64,000 nucleotides of DNA from Pseudomonadota bacterium (GCA_039180285.1 JBCDDN010000001.1:19922-83921), one strand, 5' to 3'; numbered from the stretch's first letter, positions 4,962 through 14,590 are shown. The notes: a model not told the origin generated them from the sequence alone. Program-made: numbers and translations.

Positions 4962-5120
4962 AGATGGCGGGCGCTGCCCGGTACGCGCCTTTGCGAATAT
5001 CCCTGAGGCGATACAACATCCAAGGGAGCTGTCCCTGTCCGGATTGCGGGATTTGAAATAGAGTCCGGGTCCGGTGCATATGGCGCCCACCTGACGTTAT
5101 TGGCGTCAGAGGATTTTCGG
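4962..5120 (+). ncRNA. ssrS: candidate 6S RNA (ends approximate)
   Basis: About 200 nt of non-coding sequence between zapA and the 5-formyl-THF cyclo-ligase gene, the conserved ssrS position. GGCGGGCGC (4966-4974) can pair with GCGCCCACC (5083-5091), and TGCCCGG (4975-4981) with CCGGTGCA (5071-5078), giving a long closing helix around internal hairpins. A CTGACG/CGTCAG hairpin plus a U-rich run lies at 5092-5118. Confidence 0.45.
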
Positions 5121-5162
5121 GTAAACGGCCATGGCGGCCCCGCCACCCGAGCAGGCGAAATC

Positions 5163-5732
5163 ATGACGAAAACCGAATTGCGATTATGCTTTAAGAAAGC
5201 ACGGCAAGATTTTGTTTTATCAAGTAATAATGAAAGTATTTGCTCGTGCAAGCAAACGCTGTCCGAGCATATCCTGAATGCCGATATCATAAACGGCACG
5301 ATCGGCGGTTATGCTGCCATGACGTCAGAATTAGATCCCTCGAAACTGATCGAAATATGCCGCGAAAGGGGTCATCGGATTGCCCTGCCTTATTTTGAGA
5401 ATAGAGACAGCGCCATGCGATATCGGCAATGGGACGACGCGTCTTTCGAACATGGCCCCTTCGGAATTCGTCAACCGACTACGAAATGCAAAACGATCGA
5501 GCCGGACACGCTGTTGATACCGCTCGTCGCAGTGGACTTGAAAGGCAACCGATTGGGTCAAGGCCAGGGGCATTATGACCGCATTCTCGCCAGATTTCGC
5601 GCAGAAAGGCCCATCACAGCCATTGGTGTCGCCTGGACCTGCCAGATCGCCGACCGGATTCCGGTCGACCCGTGGGACGAACCGCTCGATTACATTGCCA
5701 CTCCGGACCGAATCATTAAGGTGAAGTCATGA
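5163..5732 (+). CDS. 5-formyltetrahydrofolate cyclo-ligase
   Basis: Track ORF trimmed to ATG 5163 (MTKTELRLCFKKAR). C-terminal LIPLVAVDLKGNRLGQGQGHYDR motif typical of the family. Confidence 0.85.
   Translation: MTKTELRLCFKKARQDFVLSSNNESICSCKQTLSEHILNADIINGTIGGYAAMTSELDPSKLIEICRERGHRIALPYFENRDSAMRYRQWDDASFEHGPFGIRQPTTKCKTIEPDTLLIPLVAVDLKGNRLGQGQGHYDRILARFRAERPITAIGVAWTCQIADRIPVDPWDEPLDYIATPDRIIKVKS

Positions 5733-5926: not shown

Positions 5927-5938
<12 letters not shown>
5729..5938 (+). CDS. small two-TM membrane protein (DUF2842-like)
   Basis: 69 aa with two hydrophobic helices. ATGA overlap with the upstream stop. Its 3' end overlaps the tRNA-Asp 3' end by 12 nt. Confidence 0.55.
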
Positions 5939-6003
<65 letters not shown>

Positions 6004-6287: not shown

Positions 6288-7286
6288 ATGTTGCCTATTC
6301 GGCACCGATACAGATCGCGCTTAGCGGGGCGTTTTTCGCTCTGCCTGGCCATGCTGTCGTCTGTTCTGATTGCACCGACCGCCCATGCTGCCGGTACGCT
6401 GGCCGGCACGCCGATCGAGAATACGGCAACGGCAACCTATGACGAGGGCGGCACGACGATCACGGTCGATTCCAATACGGTTTCGCTGATCGTCGACGAA
6501 ATTCTCGACATCGCCGTTTCGTCCGCCAATCCCGGTGACGTCACCGCAAGTCCTGATGAAGACGATGTCGTTCTGAGCTTCACGGTTACGAACGGTGGCA
6601 ATGGACCCGAGCCCGTGCTGCTGACGATCGATCCGAATATCGGCGGCGACGATTTCGACCCTGACACCGTGACTCTTTATATAGATACCGACGGCAACGG
6701 CAGTTACGATGCCGGAACCGACACGCTATATAGCGCCTCGACACCGCCGACCTTCGATCCCGACCAAACGATCACCGTTTTCGTTTTGGGCGATATGCCG
6801 ACCGCTGCGGATGGCGATCGCAGCGAAGTCGGACTCACCGGCACGGCAGCGACAGGAAGCGGGACACCGGGCACGGTTTTTGCCGGTCAAGGCGAGAGTG
6901 GCGGCAATGCCGTTGTCGGCGCAACCAGCGCAACGGCCAGCGATAGCGGTTTTTACGCGATCGTCGATGCCGATCTCGATCTCACCAAGACCGCGACGGT
7001 CGCCGATCCCTTCGGCGGGACGAGCCAGATCCCCGGTGCAACGATCACCTATCGGCTAACGGCCGAAGCTACCGGTTCGGGATCGCTCGACAACGTCGTC
7101 ATCTCGGACGCGATCCCCGCCGACACGACTTATGTCGACGACAGCATCACCCTGGATGGGACCGCGCTCACCGATAATTCCGATGCCGATGCTGGCGAAT
7201 TCGACGGCACGGGTATCTCCGTAGCGCTGGGTACGGTTACCGGTGGAGGCACTAATATCATTGAATTTCAAGTCGTTATCGACTGA
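6288..7286 (+). CDS. secreted two-domain DUF11 (TIGR01451 conserved-repeat) protein, putative fibre subunit
   Basis: 332 aa. Signal peptide ...LIAPTAHA|AG. C-terminal DUF11 module DLDLTKTATVADPFGGTSQIPGATITYRLTAEATGSGSLDNVVISDAIPADTTYV...IIEFQVVID-stop. Paralogous to 7840-8931. Confidence 0.8.
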   Translation: MLPIRHRYRSRLAGRFSLCLAMLSSVLIAPTAHAAGTLAGTPIENTATATYDEGGTTITVDSNTVSLIVDEILDIAVSSANPGDVTASPDEDDVVLSFTVTNGGNGPEPVLLTIDPNIGGDDFDPDTVTLYIDTDGNGSYDAGTDTLYSASTPPTFDPDQTITVFVLGDMPTAADGDRSEVGLTGTAATGSGTPGTVFAGQGESGGNAVVGATSATASDSGFYAIVDADLDLTKTATVADPFGGTSQIPGATITYRLTAEATGSGSLDNVVISDAIPADTTYVDDSITLDGTALTDNSDADAGEFDGTGISVALGTVTGGGTNIIEFQVVID

Positions 7287-7292
7287 CGGAGA

Positions 7293-7760
7293 ATGAGCAT
7301 GAAGTATCTTATCGCACTATTCGCGCTGATCGCGCCGACCAGCGCCGTGATGGCCAATCAGGTCGCGCTGGACAGCGAGGTTTTTGTGGAGCGCAGCGAA
7401 GAGCAGGCGGACGGCAGCGTCACGGTCACGCTCGACGAGCCCAACCGGGTCATTCCGGGCGATACACTGGTTTTCGTGCTCACCTACGAGAATACCGGCG
7501 CGGAACCGGCCGAAAATTTCGTCGTGACGAATCCGATGCCCGATGCAGTGGCCTTTGTCGAAGCGATCGACGGCGGTGCTGTCTATTCGGTGGATTACGG
7601 CACGACCTTCGGCTCGCTGGCCGATCTCAGAGTCTTTGGCGAAGGCGGCGTCCAGCGCGATGCTCAAGCTGTCGATGTCACACATATTCGCTGGACGCTG
7701 ACCGAGCCGATCCCGGTCGGCGCGACCGGACAACTCAGATTTCGCGGCGTCGTCAGATAG
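7293..7760 (+). CDS. small secreted single-domain DUF11-like protein
   Basis: 155 aa. Signal peptide ...PTSAVMA|NQ. One Ig-like module (VIPGDTLVFVLTYENTGAEPAENFVVTNPMPDAVAFV...GQLRFRGVVR-stop). Starts 6 nt after the previous stop and has a GGAGA Shine-Dalgarno sequence. Confidence 0.7.
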   Translation: MSMKYLIALFALIAPTSAVMANQVALDSEVFVERSEEQADGSVTVTLDEPNRVIPGDTLVFVLTYENTGAEPAENFVVTNPMPDAVAFVEAIDGGAVYSVDYGTTFGSLADLRVFGEGGVQRDAQAVDVTHIRWTLTEPIPVGATGQLRFRGVVR

Positions 7761-7839
7761 CCGCGAGTGAAACCGCCAACATGTGCCTGCGGACCGGGGG
7801 GTGAAAGGCACTGAAGACGACAGAATTAGGACTAGGACA

Positions 7840-8931
7840 ATGAAAAGCATGACGAAATATCTCGTCTCTGTCAGCGGTGTAACGCTTGCGGCCTTGGCTG
7901 CGAGCCCCAGCTTTGCGCAAAACACCGCCGCCGGATCGAGCATCACGAATACGGTCACAGTCGGTTATCAAGTCGGTGGTGTTGCTCAAAATGATATCAC
8001 TGCATCCGATACGCTGACGGTTGATCGTGCCGTCAATATAGTTGTCGCCGAACTCGGCAATGCGACCACATCGGTTTCACCTGGCGAGCAGGACGCCGTG
8101 ACGACTTTCGAAGTCACCAATGAAACAAACGATTTTATCGATATTTCTTTGGCGGTATCCCAGATCGTTGGAGGAACAGCTGCCCATGGCGGCACTGATA
8201 GCTTCAACGTAGCCAACGTTGAAATCTATGTCGATGACGGCAATGGCAGCTTTGATCCAGGCGATACGCCCGTCACATTCCTCGATGAGATGGGTAATGG
8301 CGAAACGCGGCGCGTTTTTGTCGTGGCGGACGTCCCGTTAGGCCTCGCGACCGGCGATGTTGCGGATGTCGAGCTGACCGGTACAGCCCGAGAGGGCAAT
8401 GGCGGCACAACAGGTGCGCTGGGCGGCGTGATCTCCGTAGCCAGCAGCAACACGGCCGGCGAAGATACCATTTTTGCCGACAGCGATGGCGTTTTCGACG
8501 GAATCGCATTCGACGACGATGATTACACAGTGCAGGCCGCAGCGCTCTCGGCGCTTAAGGGCAGTACCGTGCTTGCCGTCAACTATCCGATCACCGGAGC
8601 CACGGAATTCTACAACATTCCGGGTGCAACGGTCGAATATTGCATCGCCGTGAGCAACGCCGCGGGCGGTGCCGCCGCGACCAATGTCGCGATTTCGGAC
8701 ACGCTGCCGGCCAACACGACCTTCGTCGGTTCGTCGATCGTGATCGGCGGAACCGCGACGATCGACGATGGCGGCACGCCCGGCAATACCGCGGACGATA
8801 CGCTGACCAGCTGCGACAATAGCGGCGGTTCGGCCGGCGGCACGTTCGCGGCCGGCACGGTTTCGGCAACTATCGGCACGGTTGCGGCCGGCGCGACCGA
8901 GATCGTGACCTTCCGGGCAACGATCGACTAA
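7840..8931 (+). CDS. secreted two-domain DUF11 protein, paralogue of 6288-7286
   Basis: Track ORF trimmed to ATG 7840 (MKSMTKYLVSVSGVTLAALAASPSFA|QN). Same architecture as 6288-7286 and same ending (...TEIVTFRATID-stop). Confidence 0.8.
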   Translation: MKSMTKYLVSVSGVTLAALAASPSFAQNTAAGSSITNTVTVGYQVGGVAQNDITASDTLTVDRAVNIVVAELGNATTSVSPGEQDAVTTFEVTNETNDFIDISLAVSQIVGGTAAHGGTDSFNVANVEIYVDDGNGSFDPGDTPVTFLDEMGNGETRRVFVVADVPLGLATGDVADVELTGTAREGNGGTTGALGGVISVASSNTAGEDTIFADSDGVFDGIAFDDDDYTVQAAALSALKGSTVLAVNYPITGATEFYNIPGATVEYCIAVSNAAGGAAATNVAISDTLPANTTFVGSSIVIGGTATIDDGGTPGNTADDTLTSCDNSGGSAGGTFAAGTVSATIGTVAAGATEIVTFRATID

Positions 8932-8942
8932 GCGGATTGAGC

Positions 8943-11900
8943 ATGGCCGCCGGACGTTCGACCGGCGGCCCGCAGCTCAAAACCATGCTTCGCTCGCTCC
9001 TCTCGGTATGTGCAATGTTTTTTGCACTATTCGCTGCGCTATTGTCGCCGGTGAGTATGGCTGCGCACGCGCAGACGATATCGAACATCGCCTATGTTGA
9101 GTGGGACGCAGGCGGCGAGCGGCGGCGCGAGCCGTCCAACCAACTTGATATCGACGTCGAACTCGTCGCCGGGACACCCCCGGAAATTGGCCTGTTCCAA
9201 TTCAGTCCCGGTGATGGCGGCGGCGCGACCGATATCATGCTTGCGGACGCAGCGAGTTGTGTCGCTATTCCACCCCATACATCGCCCGCTCTCGGCGGCA
9301 CCTATGCCGGCGTTCCGATCCAACCGGCGTCCGTGACCGGCGCGTCGGCTGTCCGTCCCGGCGAACCGTTGATCTTCGTCGTCGAGCATGGGGCCTCGAA
9401 TGCCGATCAAACCGCAATCGAAACCTATGAAATCGTTATAGAAACAGCAGAAGGCGATCGGGAGCGCCTGATCCTGACAGAGACGGAAGCAGATAGCGGC
9501 GTCTTTGCCGGCTTCATATTCACGACCGCCGTACCGCCAACGCCCACGCCGGAAGATTGCGAACTATCGGTCGTGCCCGGTTCGGAACTCCGGATCGCGC
9601 CAACCGGTGAGAACGGCCTGCGGGAGTTTACCGAACTTGCGGTCGAAGTTCTCGAAAGCTTTGGCTCCACGGTATTCGACAGCGAAACCGGCGACCCTGT
9701 AAACGGTGCCCGCGTAACGCTCGTCGACGCCGAAAGCGGGCAGCCGGCGCAGGTTTTCGGAAATGACGGCGTTTCGACATTTCCGGCAACGGTCGTAACC
9801 GGCGAACGAACGACGGACAGCCGAGGCTTTGCCTATGTGCCGGGGCCGGGCGATTTCTTCTTTCCCGTCGTACCGCCGGGCCGATACCGGCTGATCATCG
9901 AGCCGCCCGAACCCTATACGGAGATATCGCAGGCAACGCCCCAGGAATTGGCGGCTTTTGTCGATTCTCGGGGTAACCCGTACGACATCGTGACCGGTTC
10001 CTATGGCGACGCCTTCACGCTGGGCGGGATTTCGCCGATCGAGATCGACATACCGCTCGACCAGCCATCCGCACCGTTGCTGATCGAGAAAGCGGCCTCG
10101 CGCCAGCTCGCCGTGCCGGGCGACCCAATCCTGTTCAGCATTCGCGTGAGCAGCTCAGATCCGAGCCGGCCGACCCGGCCGCTGGTGATCAGCGACGAGC
10201 TTCCCTCGCAACTGCGCCTTCGCCCGGATTCACTACGGCTGGATGGAGAGCGGATTGCCGACGGAGTAGATATCGCACCCGATGGACGTAGATTTACCGT
10301 TGAAATACCGCGACTTGCGTCCGGGGCATCGGGCGTGCTGACCTATGTCACGGAAGTGCTTCCCCAGGCCCGTGCGGGCGATGCGACCAACAGCGCCCAG
10401 GCCCGCGACGACCGGGGTCAGGTCAGCAATATCGCCGACGCCACCATACGGGTCACGCGGGAGACTCTGGCGAGCCGGATGACGATCATCGGACGGATTA
10501 CCGACGGCGGATGCGGTGTCGATCCCCGTACCGCGCGCGGTGTGCCGGGTGTCCGCGTAATGATGGAAGACGGCAGTTATTCGGTCACCGACGAAGACGG
10601 CCGCTATCATTTCGAAGCCGTGATGCCCGGTTTGCACGTTGTCCAGATGGACGAATCCTCCCTTCCGCTGGACCGTGCGGCGGTCGACTGCGCGCGCAAT
10701 ACGCGATCCGCCGGACGCGCTTTCTCGCGCTTCGTCGAAGGCCAGGGCGGCGGCCTCTACCGTGTCGATTTCCGCGTCCGAGCTGTCGAGCCGCGCGAGG
10801 CCCCGGCCAATTCCGTACCCGCCATTGAGCGCCCGGAGCCGGTATCCGACGCCGAGGCGGCAGGCGCCGACCGCGATTGGCTGATCGGACAGGAACCGGG
10901 CATCGACTGGATATTCCCGGCAACCGATTACAATCCGCGCACCCGCGTTATACGGGCCGCGATCAAGCACCTTCCCGGCCAGACCGTGCAGCTGTCGCTC
11001 AACGGCAGCCCGGTTGCACCGGTCGCCTTCGAAGGTGTGCGCACCAACCCGGCCAACACGGTTTCGGTCAGCCATTGGCGGGGCATCGGAATCGAACCCC
11101 GCGAAAACCGATTGGTCGCGGAGATCCTGGATGCCGATGGCGCGGTGGTGGAAACGCTCAGCCGTACCGTACATTTCGGCAACGCGCCGATCCGGGCGGA
11201 GCTGATCCCGGAACGCTCGCGCCTGATAGCCGACGGCGTCTCGCGTCCCCTGATCGCAGTGCGGCTTACCGATCGCGACGGACAGCCCGTGCATCATGGC
11301 CTGACCGGCGACTTTGCTGTCCCCTCGCCCTACTTCCCGGCAGTCGAGGCGGACGCGCAACAGGCGCGTCAACTGGCAGGCCTCGAGCGCGCAGCGCCGG
11401 TTTGGCGTGTCGAAGGCGATGAAGGCATCGCCTATATCGAACTCGAACCGACGACGGTCAGCGGCACATTGGCCGTCACCTTCCCGTTCCGCGACGGCGA
11501 GGTCGCGCGTGAGCAGAGCATCGAAACCTGGCTTGAGCCGGGTGATCGGCCCTGGACGATAGTCGGCTTTGCAGCCGGTACGGTCGGATTCAACCATCTC
11601 GACCGCAATCTCGAAGAGATCGGCGCCGATGAGGAGACCTGGTACACGGACGCCCGGGTCGCGCTCTATGCGCGCGGACGCGTCACCGGCCAATGGCTGA
11701 TGACGATGGCCTATGACAGCGATGCCGAGCGCGACGATACGCGCTTCCAGGGCGTTATCGATCCGAACCAATATTACACCATCTACGCCGACCGCTCGGA
11801 GCGCCGGTTCGACGCCGCCAGCGTCCGCCGCCTCTATCTGCGGCTCGAGCGCCCACAATTCTATGCGATGTTCGGTGACTATGAGACCAATTTCAACGAG

Positions 11901-14108
11901 ACCCAGCTCACGCGCTACAATCGGAGCTTCAACGGCGTGCGCGCCGAATTCCGCAACGAGCGCGTTTCGGCAACCGCTTTCGCCGCGGACACGCCTTATC
12001 GATTCCGTCGCGTCGAGATCCAGGGTAACGGCCTGACCGGCCCTTATGCGATCGGCAGCACACAGCTGCTGGCGAACAGCGAACGGATCACGATCGAGGT
12101 GCGGGATCGGCTGCGGTCGAATATCGTGCTGTCGAGCCAGCAGTTGGTCCGTCACATCGACTACGACATCGACTATTTCAACGGAACGCTCCGGTTCCGC
12201 GAACCGATCCTCAGCCGCGACTCCGCGCTCAACCCGCAATTCGTCGTCGTCGAATATGAGGTCGACGGTGTGGCCGCGCGCCGAATCAACGCTGGCGGTC
12301 GTTTCACCTGGACCACATCCGACCAGCGCCTGCGGATCGGCGTCACCGCCATTCGCGACGATGATAATGTCCGCGAGACCAATATGGGCGGAATAGACAT
12401 CCGGTGGCGGCCCAACGACACGACCGAAATCCGGGCCGAGTTCGCGGCCAGCGATACCGATCCGGGGGCGAGTGCCGCGCCGACCGAAGACAATCCGGGC
12501 ACGGCCACTGCCTGGCTGGTCGAGGCCGAGCATCACAGTTCGGATTTCGACATTCTCGCCTATGCCCGCGAACAGGATGCAGACTACGGCGTCGGTCAGC
12601 TGAGCGGCGCAGAAAGCGGCACGCGCAAGTTCGGTTTCGACGGCCGGGTACGGATCGACGAACGCCTTTCGCTCGCGGCGAGCGGCTGGCACGAGAATTT
12701 CCTGACCAGCGGTGCCCGGCGTATCGCCGGCCAGGCCATGCTCGAATATCGCGGCGATACGACAGACGGTCGGGTCGGCATCATCTACAGCAATGACGAG
12801 CTGAGCGACGGCACGACGCTCGAATCGACTCTGCTCCAACTGGGTGCGACGCAGCGGCTGTTCGGCAATCGCCTGACGCTCGATGCACAGACCGAGTTTG
12901 CGCTGGACGAAGCGGAAAGCGTCGACTTCCCGGCGCGCCATCAGTTCACGGCCCGCTTCGCGGCGACCGAGTGGATTACGCTGGTCGGCGGCTACGAAAT
13001 CGCCGAGGGCGACACGATCGATGCGCGCACGGCACGCGTCGGCTTCGATCTCCAGCCCTGGTCGGGTGCGCGCATATCGCTGGCCGGCAATCAGCAGGAC
13101 ATCGCCGAATATGGTCCGCGTACTTTTGCCGCCTATGGTTTCGCGCAGTCGGTAGTGATCGACGAAAACTGGTCGATCGATTTCTCGCTCGATGGCAATA
13201 AGACGCTGAACGGCGGCATCGATCCCGATACGGTGCTCAATCCGGCCCAACCCGTCGCCAGTGGCGGCTTTGTCGGCAACGGCACCAATCCGACGCTGAC
13301 CGAGGACTTCACGGCCGTGACCGCGGGCGCGACCTACCGCGGTGATCGCTGGAGCTGGGCGGGCCGCGCAGAATATCGCGATGGCGATCGCGAGAACCGC
13401 TATGGCCTGACCACGTCGCTGCTGCGCCAGATCGGCGAGGGCAGCGCGGTCGGCGGCGCCTTCTCCTGGCTGCGCGCCGAACAGGATGGCGGCGCGACGA
13501 GCGAGATCACCTCGCTCGAAATTTCGATCGCCCACCGTCCGATGGACAGCGATTGGTCGTTCCTCAACAAGCTCGAGCTGCGCAGCGACGAGATCACCAA
13601 TGCGGTGGCCGGCCAGCCTGGCCCGGTCGGCAGCGCCCCGCTGCTCGTTTCGGGCGACCAGCGCTCGCGCCGCATCGTCAACAGCTTCTCCCTCAACTAT
13701 TCGCCGACGAGCACCGGCCTCAGCATGTTCGGCGGCGAAGACTGGCTCGACCGCAGCGAATTCACCTTCTTCTGGGGCACGCGCTATGTTTCCGACCGGT
13801 TCGGGACGGCGGATGTCGAAGGCTGGAGCAACCTCTTCGGCGCCGATGCGCGTTTCGATCTGTCCGAAACCATCGATATCGGAGCATCGGCCAGCATCCG
13901 CGAAGGCAATGGCGGGCGCGCCTGGACCTGGTCCATAGGCCCGAATATCGGCATCAGCCCCATCGAAAACACTTGGATTTCAATCGGTTACAACATTGCC
14001 GGTTTCGAAGATCGCGACTTCGAAGCGGCCCGCTACACGCGCGACGGACCCTATGTCACCTTCCGCCTGCGCTTCGATCAACAGACCTTCCGGGACCTCG
14101 GTTTCTAG
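8943..14108 (+). CDS. giant secreted protein: N-terminal strand motif, carboxypeptidase-regulatory-like domains, DUF11 domain, and a large C-terminal outer-membrane beta-barrel
   Basis: 1723-aa track ORF (TTG 8937). ATG 8943 or ATG 8985 (MLRSLLSVCAMFFALFAALLSPVSMAAHA|QT) are the likelier starts. Complete DUF11 module at about nt 10077-10454. CarboxypepD_reg-like segments at about 9663-9911 and 10479-10652. The last ~700 aa show alternating-hydrophobic strands and end ...YVTFRLRFDQQTFRDLGF. Confidence 0.8.
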   Translation: MAAGRSTGGPQLKTMLRSLLSVCAMFFALFAALLSPVSMAAHAQTISNIAYVEWDAGGERRREPSNQLDIDVELVAGTPPEIGLFQFSPGDGGGATDIMLADAASCVAIPPHTSPALGGTYAGVPIQPASVTGASAVRPGEPLIFVVEHGASNADQTAIETYEIVIETAEGDRERLILTETEADSGVFAGFIFTTAVPPTPTPEDCELSVVPGSELRIAPTGENGLREFTELAVEVLESFGSTVFDSETGDPVNGARVTLVDAESGQPAQVFGNDGVSTFPATVVTGERTTDSRGFAYVPGPGDFFFPVVPPGRYRLIIEPPEPYTEISQATPQELAAFVDSRGNPYDIVTGSYGDAFTLGGISPIEIDIPLDQPSAPLLIEKAASRQLAVPGDPILFSIRVSSSDPSRPTRPLVISDELPSQLRLRPDSLRLDGERIADGVDIAPDGRRFTVEIPRLASGASGVLTYVTEVLPQARAGDATNSAQARDDRGQVSNIADATIRVTRETLASRMTIIGRITDGGCGVDPRTARGVPGVRVMMEDGSYSVTDEDGRYHFEAVMPGLHVVQMDESSLPLDRAAVDCARNTRSAGRAFSRFVEGQGGGLYRVDFRVRAVEPREAPANSVPAIERPEPVSDAEAAGADRDWLIGQEPGIDWIFPATDYNPRTRVIRAAIKHLPGQTVQLSLNGSPVAPVAFEGVRTNPANTVSVSHWRGIGIEPRENRLVAEILDADGAVVETLSRTVHFGNAPIRAELIPERSRLIADGVSRPLIAVRLTDRDGQPVHHGLTGDFAVPSPYFPAVEADAQQARQLAGLERAAPVWRVEGDEGIAYIELEPTTVSGTLAVTFPFRDGEVAREQSIETWLEPGDRPWTIVGFAAGTVGFNHLDRNLEEIGADEETWYTDARVALYARGRVTGQWLMTMAYDSDAERDDTRFQGVIDPNQYYTIYADRSERRFDAASVRRLYLRLERPQFYAMFGDYETNFNETQLTRYNRSFNGVRAEFRNERVSATAFAADTPYRFRRVEIQGNGLTGPYAIGSTQLLANSERITIEVRDRLRSNIVLSSQQLVRHIDYDIDYFNGTLRFREPILSRDSALNPQFVVVEYEVDGVAARRINAGGRFTWTTSDQRLRIGVTAIRDDDNVRETNMGGIDIRWRPNDTTEIRAEFAASDTDPGASAAPTEDNPGTATAWLVEAEHHSSDFDILAYAREQDADYGVGQLSGAESGTRKFGFDGRVRIDERLSLAASGWHENFLTSGARRIAGQAMLEYRGDTTDGRVGIIYSNDELSDGTTLESTLLQLGATQRLFGNRLTLDAQTEFALDEAESVDFPARHQFTARFAATEWITLVGGYEIAEGDTIDARTARVGFDLQPWSGARISLAGNQQDIAEYGPRTFAAYGFAQSVVIDENWSIDFSLDGNKTLNGGIDPDTVLNPAQPVASGGFVGNGTNPTLTEDFTAVTAGATYRGDRWSWAGRAEYRDGDRENRYGLTTSLLRQIGEGSAVGGAFSWLRAEQDGGATSEITSLEISIAHRPMDSDWSFLNKLELRSDEITNAVAGQPGPVGSAPLLVSGDQRSRRIVNSFSLNYSPTSTGLSMFGGEDWLDRSEFTFFWGTRYVSDRFGTADVEGWSNLFGADARFDLSETIDIGASASIREGNGGRAWTWSIGPNIGISPIENTWISIGYNIAGFEDRDFEAARYTRDGPYVTFRLRFDQQTFRDLGF

Positions 14109-14308
14109 AGGTCCGCGCAACCCGAAACCGCGCTAAGTTCCCAAACGGTTGACACTGGTTGACACGCTCCGGGGGTACGCCCCTGGACTTTCCCCTGTTG
14201 GGGATGGCACGCCTTTCGCGATTCACTTTTCTCCTTTCCATGACGGCAGCGTCAGTGCGGAGTCTATCATGCGCGCCCAGCTGTAGGACAGGAAAAGCGG
14301 GGCCAGTT

Positions 14309-14505: not shown

Positions 14506-14590
14506 TGGTACCTCTGGCCGGAGTCGAACCGGCACTCCCGAAGGAACTCGATTTTGAGTCGAGCGCGTCTACCAATTCCGCCACAGAGGC
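14506..14590 (-). tRNA. tRNA-Leu (CAA)
   Basis: The reverse complement reads GCCTCTGTGGCGGAATTGGTAGACGCGCTCGACTCAAAATCGAGTTCCTTCGGGAGTGCCGGTTCGACTCCGGCCAGAGGTACCA. It has a long variable arm, a CAA anticodon and an encoded CCA. Confidence 0.9.

Follow-up and report, generated by a model that had tools for sequence, protein, structure and literature searches.

A conserved four-gene cluster of Sphingomonadales with split CLIPPER (DUF11) domains as a candidate system for covalent tag/catcher assembly

Isopeptide-forming domains and strand-inserted fibres

The DUF11 domain has been described as the "CLIPPER" domain (PDB 9IFR), which crosslinks itself via an isopeptide bond between a lysine and an asparagine, with an aspartate as catalyst (PMC12617251). 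Within this triad the Lys is located on strand 1 and the Asn on strand 8, and no arrangements other than intramolecular bonds and tandem stalk repeats are described in the survey of the domain (PMC12617251). A division of the reactive residues between two molecules is known from SpyTag/SpyCatcher-type splits, in which a short strand peptide carries one reactive residue and its partner the other one together with the catalytic acid, the reaction being spontaneous (PMC6539128, PMC5333627). In the Sulfolobus thread (PMC9715654) and in BsaA/TasA of Clostridium perfringens (PMC11580942) an N-terminal segment inserts into the beta-sheet of the next subunit and is fixed by an isopeptide bond; in the Sulfolobus threads the bond connects Asn57 with the N-terminal amine of subunit n+2 (PMC9715654). 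A published description of a fibre cluster based on split CLIPPER domains was not found.

The window analysed here, a stretch of 64,000 nucleotides from a sphingomonad, contains four co-oriented genes on the plus strand that are flanked by housekeeping genes. The open reading frame g1 (6288-7286) and its paralogue g3 (7840-8931) encode secreted subunits of 332 and 363 aa, respectively, while g2 (7293-7760) encodes a secreted protein of 155 aa consisting of a single truncated DUF11-like domain. The fourth gene, g4 (open reading frame at 8937-14108, with the ATG at 8985 as its likely true start), is predicted to encode a giant outer-membrane protein of about 1700 aa. About 78 of 80 Sphingomonadales loci, as well as Qipengyuania, share the gene order g1-g2-g3-g4, although the genomic neighbourhoods differ. 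The protein lengths are about 330-340 aa in all 1557 homologues of g1, about 153 aa in the homologues of g2, all of which stand alone, and about 1700 aa in the 427 homologues of g4.

Truncated C-terminal domains and N-terminal hairpins

In g1, g2 and g3 alike the C-terminal DUF11 domain breaks off at the same position of the fold, after strand 7 of 9. Based on the curated cut-off of PF01345 (24.6 bits) the DUF11 domain was recognised in g1 (24.7 bits), g2 (29.1 bits) and g4 (25.0 bits), whereas g3 scored just below it at full length (23.3 bits) and reached 33.4 bits as an isolated C-terminal domain; TIGR01451 was matched as well. The matches of g1 (aa 229-301, profile 1-66 of 114), g2 (aa 42-110, profile 3-71) and g3 (aa 261-362, profile 15-84) end at profile position 66-84, whereas the internal domain of g4 extends from 2 to 113 of 114. 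In profile-profile alignments against this complete g4 domain g1, g2 and g3 all end at column 97-98 of 128, and AlphaFold2 (AF2) predicted seven strands for the C-terminal domain of g1 and nine for the g4 domain. Profile coverage, alignment end and strand count thus agree with the preliminary description of the locus, which had regarded the three domains as incomplete. The three C-terminal peptides it quoted are all real, but they occur in the order g1, g3, g2 and not g1, g2, g3.

In g1 the truncated domain (aa 226-332, 6963..7283), in the following referred to as catcher, comprises the CLIPPER strands 1-7 and ends with ..IIEFQVVID, and is preceded by a middle beta-sandwich domain (aa 71-225) that showed only a weak match to AbpX (E 0.02). 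The catcher of g3 (aa 236-363) ends with ..IVTFRATID. Among the domains of the cluster a contiguous nine-strand beta-sandwich is found only in g4 (aa 381-503, 10077..10445), where Lys385, Asp420 and Asn485 are present in cis. This domain aligns to PDB 9IFR (E 1.9e-5) with Lys, Asp and Asn in register, and Asn485 lies on the eighth of its nine predicted strands.

At the opposite end of the proteins, g1, g3 and g4 carry a hairpin, hereafter called tag. In g1 it follows the signal peptide (aa 1-34) at aa 35-70 (6390..6497, AGTLAGTPIENTATATYDEGGTTITVDSNTVSLIVD), corresponds to CLIPPER strands 8-9 and is modelled by AF2 as two long strands with a pLDDT of about 96. The hairpin of g3 is located at aa 27-62 (nt 7918-8025) and that of g4 at aa 46-75 (9072..9161, QTISNIAYVEWDAGGERRREPSNQLDIDVE). 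The N-terminal peptides from which an alignable motif had been proposed were recovered in g1 (aa 40-70), g3 (aa 32-62 of the 363-aa form) and g4 (aa 46-75), their nucleotide ranges being approximately right and one to two codons off. The motif proved to be homologous at the family level according to hhalign (g1 vs g3 E 1.8e-11, g1 vs g4 E 3.6e-14, g3 vs g4 E 4.7e-6), whereas the similarity between single sequences of the window is weak, the HMM of the g1 hairpin scoring g3 and g4 at E 0.4-7. In the orthologues of g1 (n=80), g3 (n=79) and g4 (n=115) the tag begins right behind the signal-peptide cleavage site.

Appending the hairpin to the C-terminal domain extended the coverage of the Pfam DUF11 profile to position 107-110 of 114, with a gain of 1.3-5 bits over shuffled-hairpin controls, which is a weak effect. 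The hhalign score of g1 was 62.0 with the hairpin compared to 54.3 without it and 53.9 with a reversed hairpin, and in the joined alignment Lys, Asp and Asn were in register, while the permuted alignment of g3 moved from template column 97 to 113. The in-register alignment crosses the artificial junction between tag and catcher in both g1 and g3 and, as a weak signal, the natural junction in P0271. The score gains from adding the hairpin were modest overall, which is a point against the assembly proposed below. The earlier suggestion that what is missing from the C-terminal fold is found at the N-terminus is well supported, since the hairpin completes the DUF11 match in register with strands 8-9. 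The missing part is, however, not a single closing strand as initially assumed but two strands forming a hairpin (7 + 2 vs 9).

It could be argued that no complementation takes place at all, the hairpin belonging to the adjacent domain as its two initial strands, the C-terminal domains being stable seven-stranded DUF11 variants and the similarity of the motif resulting from common ancestry of beta-rich surface proteins. DUF11 domains have indeed been reported with 7-9 strands, some of them without isopeptide bonds (PMC12617251), the similarity of the single-sequence motif is not significant on its own, and neither is the alignment of the tags alone to strands 8-9 of g4 (E 0.01-0.5). Furthermore, the tag region of g4 is ordered with moderate confidence in the model of g4 alone (pLDDT 78-84), and this tag may pack on the next g4 domain, a point that also speaks against its insertion into another subunit. 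We nevertheless consider this explanation very improbable, taking into account that the invariant Lys and Asp of the catchers would have no Asn partner in their own domain, that the truncation point is identical in all three proteins, that the in-register alignment crosses the junctions described above, and that in three different protein families the mature chain starts precisely with the motif.

The predicted isopeptide triad and the partners of the hairpins

The predicted triad of g1 is formed by Asn45 (nt 6420-6422) on the tag and by Lys234 (nt 6987-6989) and Asp274 (nt 7107-7109) on the catcher, and that of g3 by Asn37 (nt 7948-7950), Lys240 (nt 8557-8559) and Asp287 (nt 8698-8700), respectively. 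The predicted triad is split in both proteins, its Lys and Asp being contributed by the C-terminal part and its Asn solely by the N-terminal hairpin. The tag Asn aligns to Asn806 of 9IFR by way of the g4 domain. Among 322 homologues of g1, Lys234 is conserved in 321, Asp274 in 320, Asn45 in 304 and Asn63 in 298 sequences, and Lys234 is the only lysine of the mature protein; the three residues of g3 are conserved in 100% of 79 orthologues. The distribution is that of a tag and a catcher, the Asn residing on the hairpin and Lys and Asp on the truncated domain, all of them nearly invariant. With the isopeptide Asn of the CLIPPER triad located on the hairpin, the link would be expected to be covalent and closer to SpyTag/SpyCatcher than to the donor strand of chaperone-usher pili, to which the cluster had originally been likened.

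A non-covalent donor-strand exchange as in chaperone-usher pili, with g2 as the chaperone, g4 as the usher and no isopeptide bond, would draw on the same evidence for a split fold, as the cluster does show an incomplete fold and a matching N-terminal segment. The succession of a subunit, a small protein, another subunit and a large outer-membrane protein is also reminiscent of fimbrial operons. However, the near-invariance of exactly those Lys, Asp and Asn residues that form the bond in 9IFR would be hard to explain, neither a PapD-like fold signature in g2 nor an usher signature in g4 was detectable, and g2, itself being truncated, could donate nothing to a catcher. A mechanism of this kind therefore seems improbable to us.

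The g2 protein has no hairpin, and the copy in the window also lacks the strand-1 Lys. In place of the catalytic Asp it has an invariant Asn (VVTNP, Asn80 at nt 7530-7532; family consensus built from 77 sequences). It is predicted to be a non-reactive catcher that acts as a cap or a chaperone.

In the g4 protein the signal peptide and the tag at the N-terminus are followed by several pilin-like Ig domains in a row and by a C-terminal part of about 850 aa ending with ..FRDLGF, which probably forms an outer-membrane beta-barrel. In the AF2 model of aa 46-900 (pLDDT 88) the best Foldseek matches of the soluble part were the Gram-positive pilins BcpA, EbpB, EbpC and SpaD. No Pfam family was matched by the last 863 aa. 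That the predicted barrel matches no known family and that an export route across the outer membrane is presumed counts against a reading of the cluster as a fibre system. In the tag the Asn (Asn50, nt 9084-9086), Ala, Trp and the SN pair are invariant among 109 aligned homologues. The sole invariant Lys in the N-terminal 855 aa of these homologues is Lys385, and the g4 copy in the window contains no Lys between aa 46 and aa 384. Since Lys385 is already part of the triad of the complete domain, the g4 tag has no partner in cis.

The question whether the tags of g1 and g3 are inserted into the catcher of the same or of another molecule is not settled by the structural model of g1. The AF2 monomer is highly confident throughout (pLDDT 94.2, pTM 0.77), and its hairpin fits a closure in cis equally well. 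However, AlphaFold is known to self-complement genuine donor-strand subunits (PMC9715654) and therefore a confident monomer model cannot decide between cis and trans. The coupling analysis had no power for contacts between domains.

In case of a closure in cis, corresponding to a circular permutation, the hairpin would complete the C-terminal CLIPPER domain of its own chain with the middle domain lying alongside, and an intramolecular Lys-Asn bond would staple the N-terminus, resulting in compact, protease-resistant monomeric surface proteins and no polymer. Besides the confident model of g1, this would be in line with known discontinuous isopeptide domains harbouring a nested insert, such as the GBS104-like Ig domain (PDB 3TXA, residues 137-211 and 587-717; PMC12617251). 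The co-divergence of the g1 tag with its own catcher (r 0.25) points in the same direction, although values of this size also occur among other g1 windows, while it is absent between the g3 tag and its own catcher (r 0.05). The model of g1 furthermore contains a break of two residues between the hairpin and the middle domain and a similar one between the middle domain and the catcher; these breaks resemble ordinary tandem junctions, and closure would require U-turns at both of them. Moreover, the invariant Asn of the g4 tag would be left without a Lys partner and g2 would remain a permanently incomplete domain. A closure in cis appears rather unlikely to us for these reasons, but it is the main rival of an insertion in trans.

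The insertion in trans is favoured by the logic of the whole system as deduced from the gene products: the g4 hairpin has no Lys of its own, g2 is truncated without a hairpin, and the divergence of the g4 tag correlates with that of the g1 catcher (partial Mantel r 0.31) more strongly than in all 50 control windows (maximum 0.29). This last correlation is marginal, and Mantel-type tests easily pick up phylogenetic artefacts.

Proposed assembly and comparison with known systems

We infer a head-to-tail polymerisation of tags and catchers in which intermolecular isopeptide bonds lock the subunits together and the outer-membrane protein g4 serves as the anchor, an explanation to which we assign a roughly even chance of being correct. 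Cleavage by the signal peptidase would expose the two-strand tag (strands 8-9) with the isopeptide Asn at the N-terminus of g1, g3 and g4, while the C-termini of g1 and g3 would serve as catchers providing strands 1-7 together with the Lys of the bond and its Asp catalyst. Each tag would enter the catcher of a different molecule and rebuild the nine-stranded CLIPPER domain, whereupon the Lys-Asn bond would form autocatalytically. Subunits joined in this way would constitute a covalently linked chain in which middle and CLIPPER domains alternate. As a tag without a free catcher, g4 would tie one chain end covalently to its pilin-like stalk and outer-membrane barrel, giving the fibre a presumed polarity. 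The g2 protein, being a catcher without Lys, Asp and tag, would bind a tag non-covalently and either cap the other chain end or hold the tags in the periplasm prior to export. It speaks against this reading that a fibre otherwise held together covalently would have an oddly weak point in such a non-covalent cap. The combination of donor-strand insertion and isopeptide lock is plausible in view of the precedents in archaeal threads (PMC9715654) and BsaA (PMC11580942).

More tentatively, and with a chance somewhat below even, the cluster may represent an unrecognised class of Gram-negative pili conserved throughout the Sphingomonadales, in which half-domains of self-crosslinking adhesins are ligated head to tail with no need for a sortase, a chaperone or an usher, and in which the g4 barrel protein with its pilin-like stalk is the covalent anchor. 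If the insertion in trans holds true, it would be a natural tag/catcher polymerisation in diderm bacteria yielding a covalent fibre without an assembly enzyme, and would add a pilus type to the chaperone-usher, type IV, type V, curli and sortase pili. The principle of inserting a strand and then locking it would be extended from archaeal threads and clostridial BsaA to a new fold and envelope, protein engineers would gain an orthogonal pair of a two-strand tag and a catcher, and a function could be assigned to a four-gene cluster whose annotation in hundreds of sphingomonad genomes currently reads hypothetical or DUF11. Even if the closure occurs in cis, a circularly permuted isopeptide domain stapling both ends of a protein together would still be unusual.

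With the chaperone-usher pili (Fim, Pap, Saf) the cluster shares the combination of an acceptor-only protein, proteins with donor and acceptor, and a donor-only terminator as well as a large outer-membrane protein. It differs in that two strands are missing, a covalent lock is predicted and g4 has a pilin-like stalk. Membership in this group was rejected since g2 and g4 matched neither a PapD-like chaperone nor an usher (PF00577) family in Pfam or NCBIfam, even at E-values up to 0.1-1, and the likeness drawn in the preliminary description could not be upheld in this respect.

In fold, the soluble part of g4 comes closest to the sortase-assembled Gram-positive pili (BcpA, EbpB/EbpC, SpaD), which share with the cluster isopeptide-stabilised Ig-like modules and a covalent linkage between subunits, the latter being proposed here. 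However, the LPXTG motif is absent from all of g1-g4, no sortase gene adjoins the cluster, the flanking genes checked being housekeeping genes, the host is diderm, and the bond between subunits would be made by the domain itself. Type V pili (FimA/Mfa1), which arise from lipoprotein precursors with a lipobox Cys through an Arg/Lys protease and use C-terminal donor strands, were likewise dismissed, as no lipobox was found in the cluster proteins, which have type I signal peptides with an AxA motif and an N-terminal donor segment.

The Sulfolobus threads and BsaA are similar in being sortase-free and encoded in small operons with accessory and cap-like subunits. They differ in their fold, which is TasA-like or a thread fold without Pfam domain, in their single donor strand, in their bond chemistry and in their monoderm or archaeal hosts without an outer membrane, whereas the present cluster combines a diderm host, the CLIPPER fold and a predicted outer-membrane barrel anchor. 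It was not assigned to this group since no Pfam match to a TasA-like (peptidase M73) fold was obtained for its proteins, the weak AbpX match of the g1 middle domain being the sole hint, and since no peptidase gene that could stand for a dedicated SipW-type signal peptidase lies in the cluster.

The CLIPPER/DUF11 domain of 9IFR belongs to the same fold family, with the Lys/Asp/Asn triad in register, and the internal domain of g4 is a regular member. In g1 and g3, by contrast, a break in the loop ahead of strand 8 divides the domain into two parts that are placed at opposite ends of the protein, and the part bearing the Asn also stands alone on g4. Like SpyTag/SpyCatcher, the cluster divides the reactive residues between a short strand-forming segment and a domain bearing the catalytic acid. 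SpyTag/SpyCatcher is man-made, derived from CnaB2 or RrgA domains and uses a tag of one strand (PMC6539128, PMC5333627), whereas the split described here would be a natural one, if real, in a CnaA-like CLIPPER fold with a two-strand hairpin as tag, and places tag and catcher on the same subunit so that chains become possible.

The divided DUF11/CLIPPER fold and its isopeptide triad

The C-terminal DUF11 domains encoded by g1, g2 and g3, three of four secreted-protein genes (g1 to g4), are truncated, as had been proposed in the preliminary description. This was evident from the Pfam coverage, the end of the profile alignments and the strand count in AlphaFold2 models. Of the 114 positions of the Pfam DUF11 profile the domains cover 1-66 (g1), 3-71 (g2) and 15-84 (g3), compared to 2-113 in the internal domain of g4 (aa 381-503). 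The family profiles of the three C-terminal domains each stop at column 97-98 of 128 when aligned with this complete g4 domain, and the AlphaFold2 secondary structure comprises seven strands in the g1 C-terminal domain and nine in the g4 domain. The three C-terminal endings quoted previously are all real, although their order is g1, g3, g2; the three quoted N-terminal peptides were likewise all found in the sequence, with coordinates one or two codons out.

The N-terminal motifs of g1, g3 and g4, which had been described as alignable, are homologous at the family level according to hhalign (g1 versus g3, E 1.8e-11; g1 versus g4, 3.6e-14; g3 versus g4, 4.7e-6); among the window copies alone the similarity is not significant (E 0.4-7). 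In every orthologue examined the motif begins just past the AxA cleavage site, in agreement with its assignment to the mature N-terminus. The idea that this two-strand hairpin (the tag) supplies the part missing from the C-terminal domain (the catcher) is well supported for both g1 and g3, the joined sequences giving full-length matches with Pfam and with hhalign. With the hairpin appended the Pfam match reaches position 107-110 of 114, a weak gain of 1.3-5 bits over shuffled controls, while the hhalign score of g1 is 62.0 compared to 54.3 without the hairpin and 53.9 for the reversed-hairpin control; g3 showed the same behaviour. The tags alone did not match strands 8-9 of the g4 domain significantly, the best short match being the last strand. 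Taken together, the combination of an N-terminal motif and a truncated C-terminal domain is confirmed.

DUF11 has been renamed CLIPPER, and the crystal structure PDB 9IFR is a CnaA-like sandwich of nine strands, in which Lys715 of the first strand is linked to Asn806 by an intramolecular isopeptide bond that forms autocatalytically, Asp748 being the catalytic residue (PMC12617251). This structure was reached by the g4 family profile only (E 1.9e-5), K385, D420 and N485 of g4 falling on the triad; searches of the PDB sequences with the permuted g1 domain and the g4 CLIPPER domain as single sequences gave nothing useful. Carried over to g1 by hhalign, the Lys corresponds to K234 (..DLTKTA..) and the Asp to D274 (..ISDAIP..), and the predicted isopeptide Asn is N45 within the N-terminal hairpin (..IENTATA..). 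Thus, the triad of g1 is divided, with the Asn in the N-terminal part of the protein and Lys and Asp in the C-terminal part. Among the 322 g1 homologues K234 is kept in 321, D274 in 320 and N45 in 304, and N37, K240 and D287 are each 100% conserved in the g3 orthologues (n=79).

Lysine is extremely depleted in these proteins, the predicted isopeptide Lys (g1 K234, g3 K240) being the sole lysine of the mature protein in the window copies, and mature g2 in the window contains no lysine at all. The g1 catcher furthermore carries the invariant residues D296 and D301 in an acidic DxDAG loop (window 7173-7190 region, aa 296-301, ..SDADAGEF..), which lies outside the isopeptide triad and might bind a metal.

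Gene cluster and relatives

The four genes form one cluster in one orientation on the forward strand: g1 (nt 6288-7286, 332 aa), g2 (nt 7293-7760, 155 aa), g3 (nt 7840-8931, 363 aa) and g4 (nt 8937-14108, about 1700 aa), the translation of the last probably starting at the ATG at 8985. Each product has a type I signal peptide, and neither an LPXTG motif nor a lipobox was detected in g1 to g4. In the public annotation of the metagenome-assembled genome (MAG) g1 (311 aa) and g4 (1683 aa) both begin 3' of the signal peptide, so that the deposited proteins look non-secreted; the longer forms (window 6288; 8937-8985) are favoured by the orthologue alignments. The flanking genes are housekeeping genes, namely transketolase, 6S RNA followed by a 5-formyltetrahydrofolate cyclo-ligase-like ORF, tRNA-Asp, tRNA-Leu, comM and yidC. 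The 6S/SsrS RNA (window 4968-5144, forward strand; Rfam RF00013, 47.2 bits versus a cut-off of 46.4) overlaps the listed start of the cyclo-ligase-like ORF (5100-5732), as is usual for the ssrS-ygfA pair. The tRNA-Asp(GTC) (window 5927-6003) and the tRNA-Leu(CAA) (window 14506-14590), both on the reverse strand, lie on either side of the cluster.

The nearest relatives were found in Parasphingopyxis and other Sphingomonadales, their annotation there being either hypothetical or "DUF11 domain-containing" protein. Of the 80 loci taken from different species of Sphingomonadales, about 78 have the order g1-g2-g3-g4 with constant protein sizes. In Qipengyuania citrea the same four genes are located in another neighbourhood, between yajC-secDF and other genes, the cluster thus moving as a unit. 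An extra gene for a protein of 675-705 aa with P_proprotein and CLIPPER domains follows there immediately 3' of the g4 homologue (12181-14208 of that locus); it is not present in the window. One Sphingomonadales MAG has two tandem g3 paralogues between g2 and g4 (locus L026, 11411-13686), and in another locus (L043) g2 was not detected. Searching 1.8 billion cluster representatives yielded 322 clusters at E < 1e-30, and in more distant metagenomic relatives a g2-like gene again adjoins the g1-like gene.

One metagenomic relative of 1335 aa (P0271) begins with an N-terminal tag and a middle domain, to which three Flg_new_2 repeats and a chitobiase C-terminal-like domain are joined; further on come a degenerate hairpin in the interior, another middle domain and a catcher that contains Lys and Asp. 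This protein could be a fused subunit or one resembling a tip adhesin; the contig of 4 kb is too short for gene context. As a catcher-then-tag fusion it was set aside, the region before the internal hairpin lacking significant catcher similarity and the junction alone aligning weakly (E 0.003-0.1), and as a natural catcher-tag junction its sequence is suggestive only.

Closure of the fold between or within chains

After export and removal of the signal peptide, the hairpin of one molecule would enter the seven-stranded C-terminal domain of another, completing the CLIPPER fold and bringing its Asn beside Lys and Asp, whereupon the isopeptide bond would form. Since g1 and g3 possess both tag and catcher they would extend the chain, g4 with its tag only would form the chain end at the cell, and g2 with a non-reactive catcher would either cap the free tag at the far end or hold tags in the periplasm. 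Such a chain, which we consider the most likely mechanism, is the simplest account in which each part has a role, its chances of being correct being about even.

Alternatively, the hairpin might close the C-terminal domain of its own chain, which we regard as less likely but still a serious rival. The very confident monomer model of g1, with a hairpin pLDDT of about 96 (AlphaFold2), is what a protein closed in this way would give, and isopeptide domains assembled from discontinuous segments are known (PMC12617251). However, AlphaFold gives the same confidence for true donor-strand subunits and tends to self-complement them (PMC9715654). Closure within the chain furthermore fits less well with the two-residue, tandem-like junctions that flank the g1 middle domain on both sides in the model, and it would leave the Asn of g4 an orphan and g2 incomplete. 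Foldseek returned generic tandem Ig-like matches for the g1 model with an RMSD > 10 Å, from which the placement of the hairpin is not readable. The middle domain itself (window 6498-6962, aa 75-129) matched AbpX of archaeal bundling pili weakly (E 0.02; PDB 9sj2, 9rhp) when the whole-protein g1 profile was searched against the PDB.

The g4 protein begins with the same hairpin, with Asn, Ala, Trp and Ser-Asn invariant among 109 aligned homologues. K385, the one lysine that is invariant within the first 855 residues of g4, already has its partner N485 within its own domain, and in the window copy lysine is absent between residues 46 and 384; the reactive-looking Asn of the g4 tag is therefore left without a partner. 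The tag region has a pLDDT of 78-84 (AlphaFold2, aa 46-900), below the rest of g4 yet not disordered, an intermediate result as to whether the tag is unsatisfied. The g2 protein is a single truncated domain that stops at the same position of the fold and has no hairpin; the strand-1 Lys is absent in the window copy and the position of the catalytic Asp is taken by an invariant Asn. Its N-terminal extension was considered as a half-tag and dropped, as it bears no similarity to the hairpin.

A weak, independent hint of the chain between molecules comes from the divergence of the sequences in 56 genomes, the g4 tag tracking the g1 catcher with a partial Mantel r of 0.31 (three other regions controlled; maximum of 50 control windows 0.29). 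For the g3 tag and its own catcher no such relation was seen (r 0.05). Mean-field coupling analysis of the 322 g1 homologues (Neff 213) picked up contacts inside domains but had no power between them, the conservation of the hairpin being too high.

The soluble part of g4 was modelled with a pLDDT of 88 (AlphaFold2), its closest folds being the Gram-positive pilins BcpA, EbpB, EbpC and SpaD. Four invariant cysteines in this part (window 9072-11636, aa 46-900; C63, C163, C481 and C540 in mature numbering) suggest disulfides in the stalk; disulfides are common in isopeptide domains of Pseudomonadota (PMC12617251). The last roughly 860 residues matched no Pfam family. They are beta-rich and end with an aromatic residue as in outer-membrane barrels, and this region may thus form such a barrel.

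Comparison with known systems

Searches of the literature brought up neither a split CLIPPER domain nor the g1 to g4 cluster. The domains belong to CLIPPER/DUF11, while the copies in g1, g2 and g3 are not complete contiguous domains. By their defining tests the cluster falls outside the chaperone-usher pili, the sortase-dependent pili, the Type V pili and the TasA-type fibres. The proposed chain nevertheless resembles chaperone-usher pili in its acceptor-only tip, bifunctional rod subunits and donor-only terminator, SpyTag/SpyCatcher in its chemistry, and the archaeal threads (PMC9715654) and BsaA (PMC11580942) in the principle of "insert then lock". If the fibre and its anchoring in the outer membrane were confirmed, the system could represent a new pilus class. 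We assign it to the donor-strand fibres with a covalent lock, a known general kind of which the version with a split CLIPPER domain is new.
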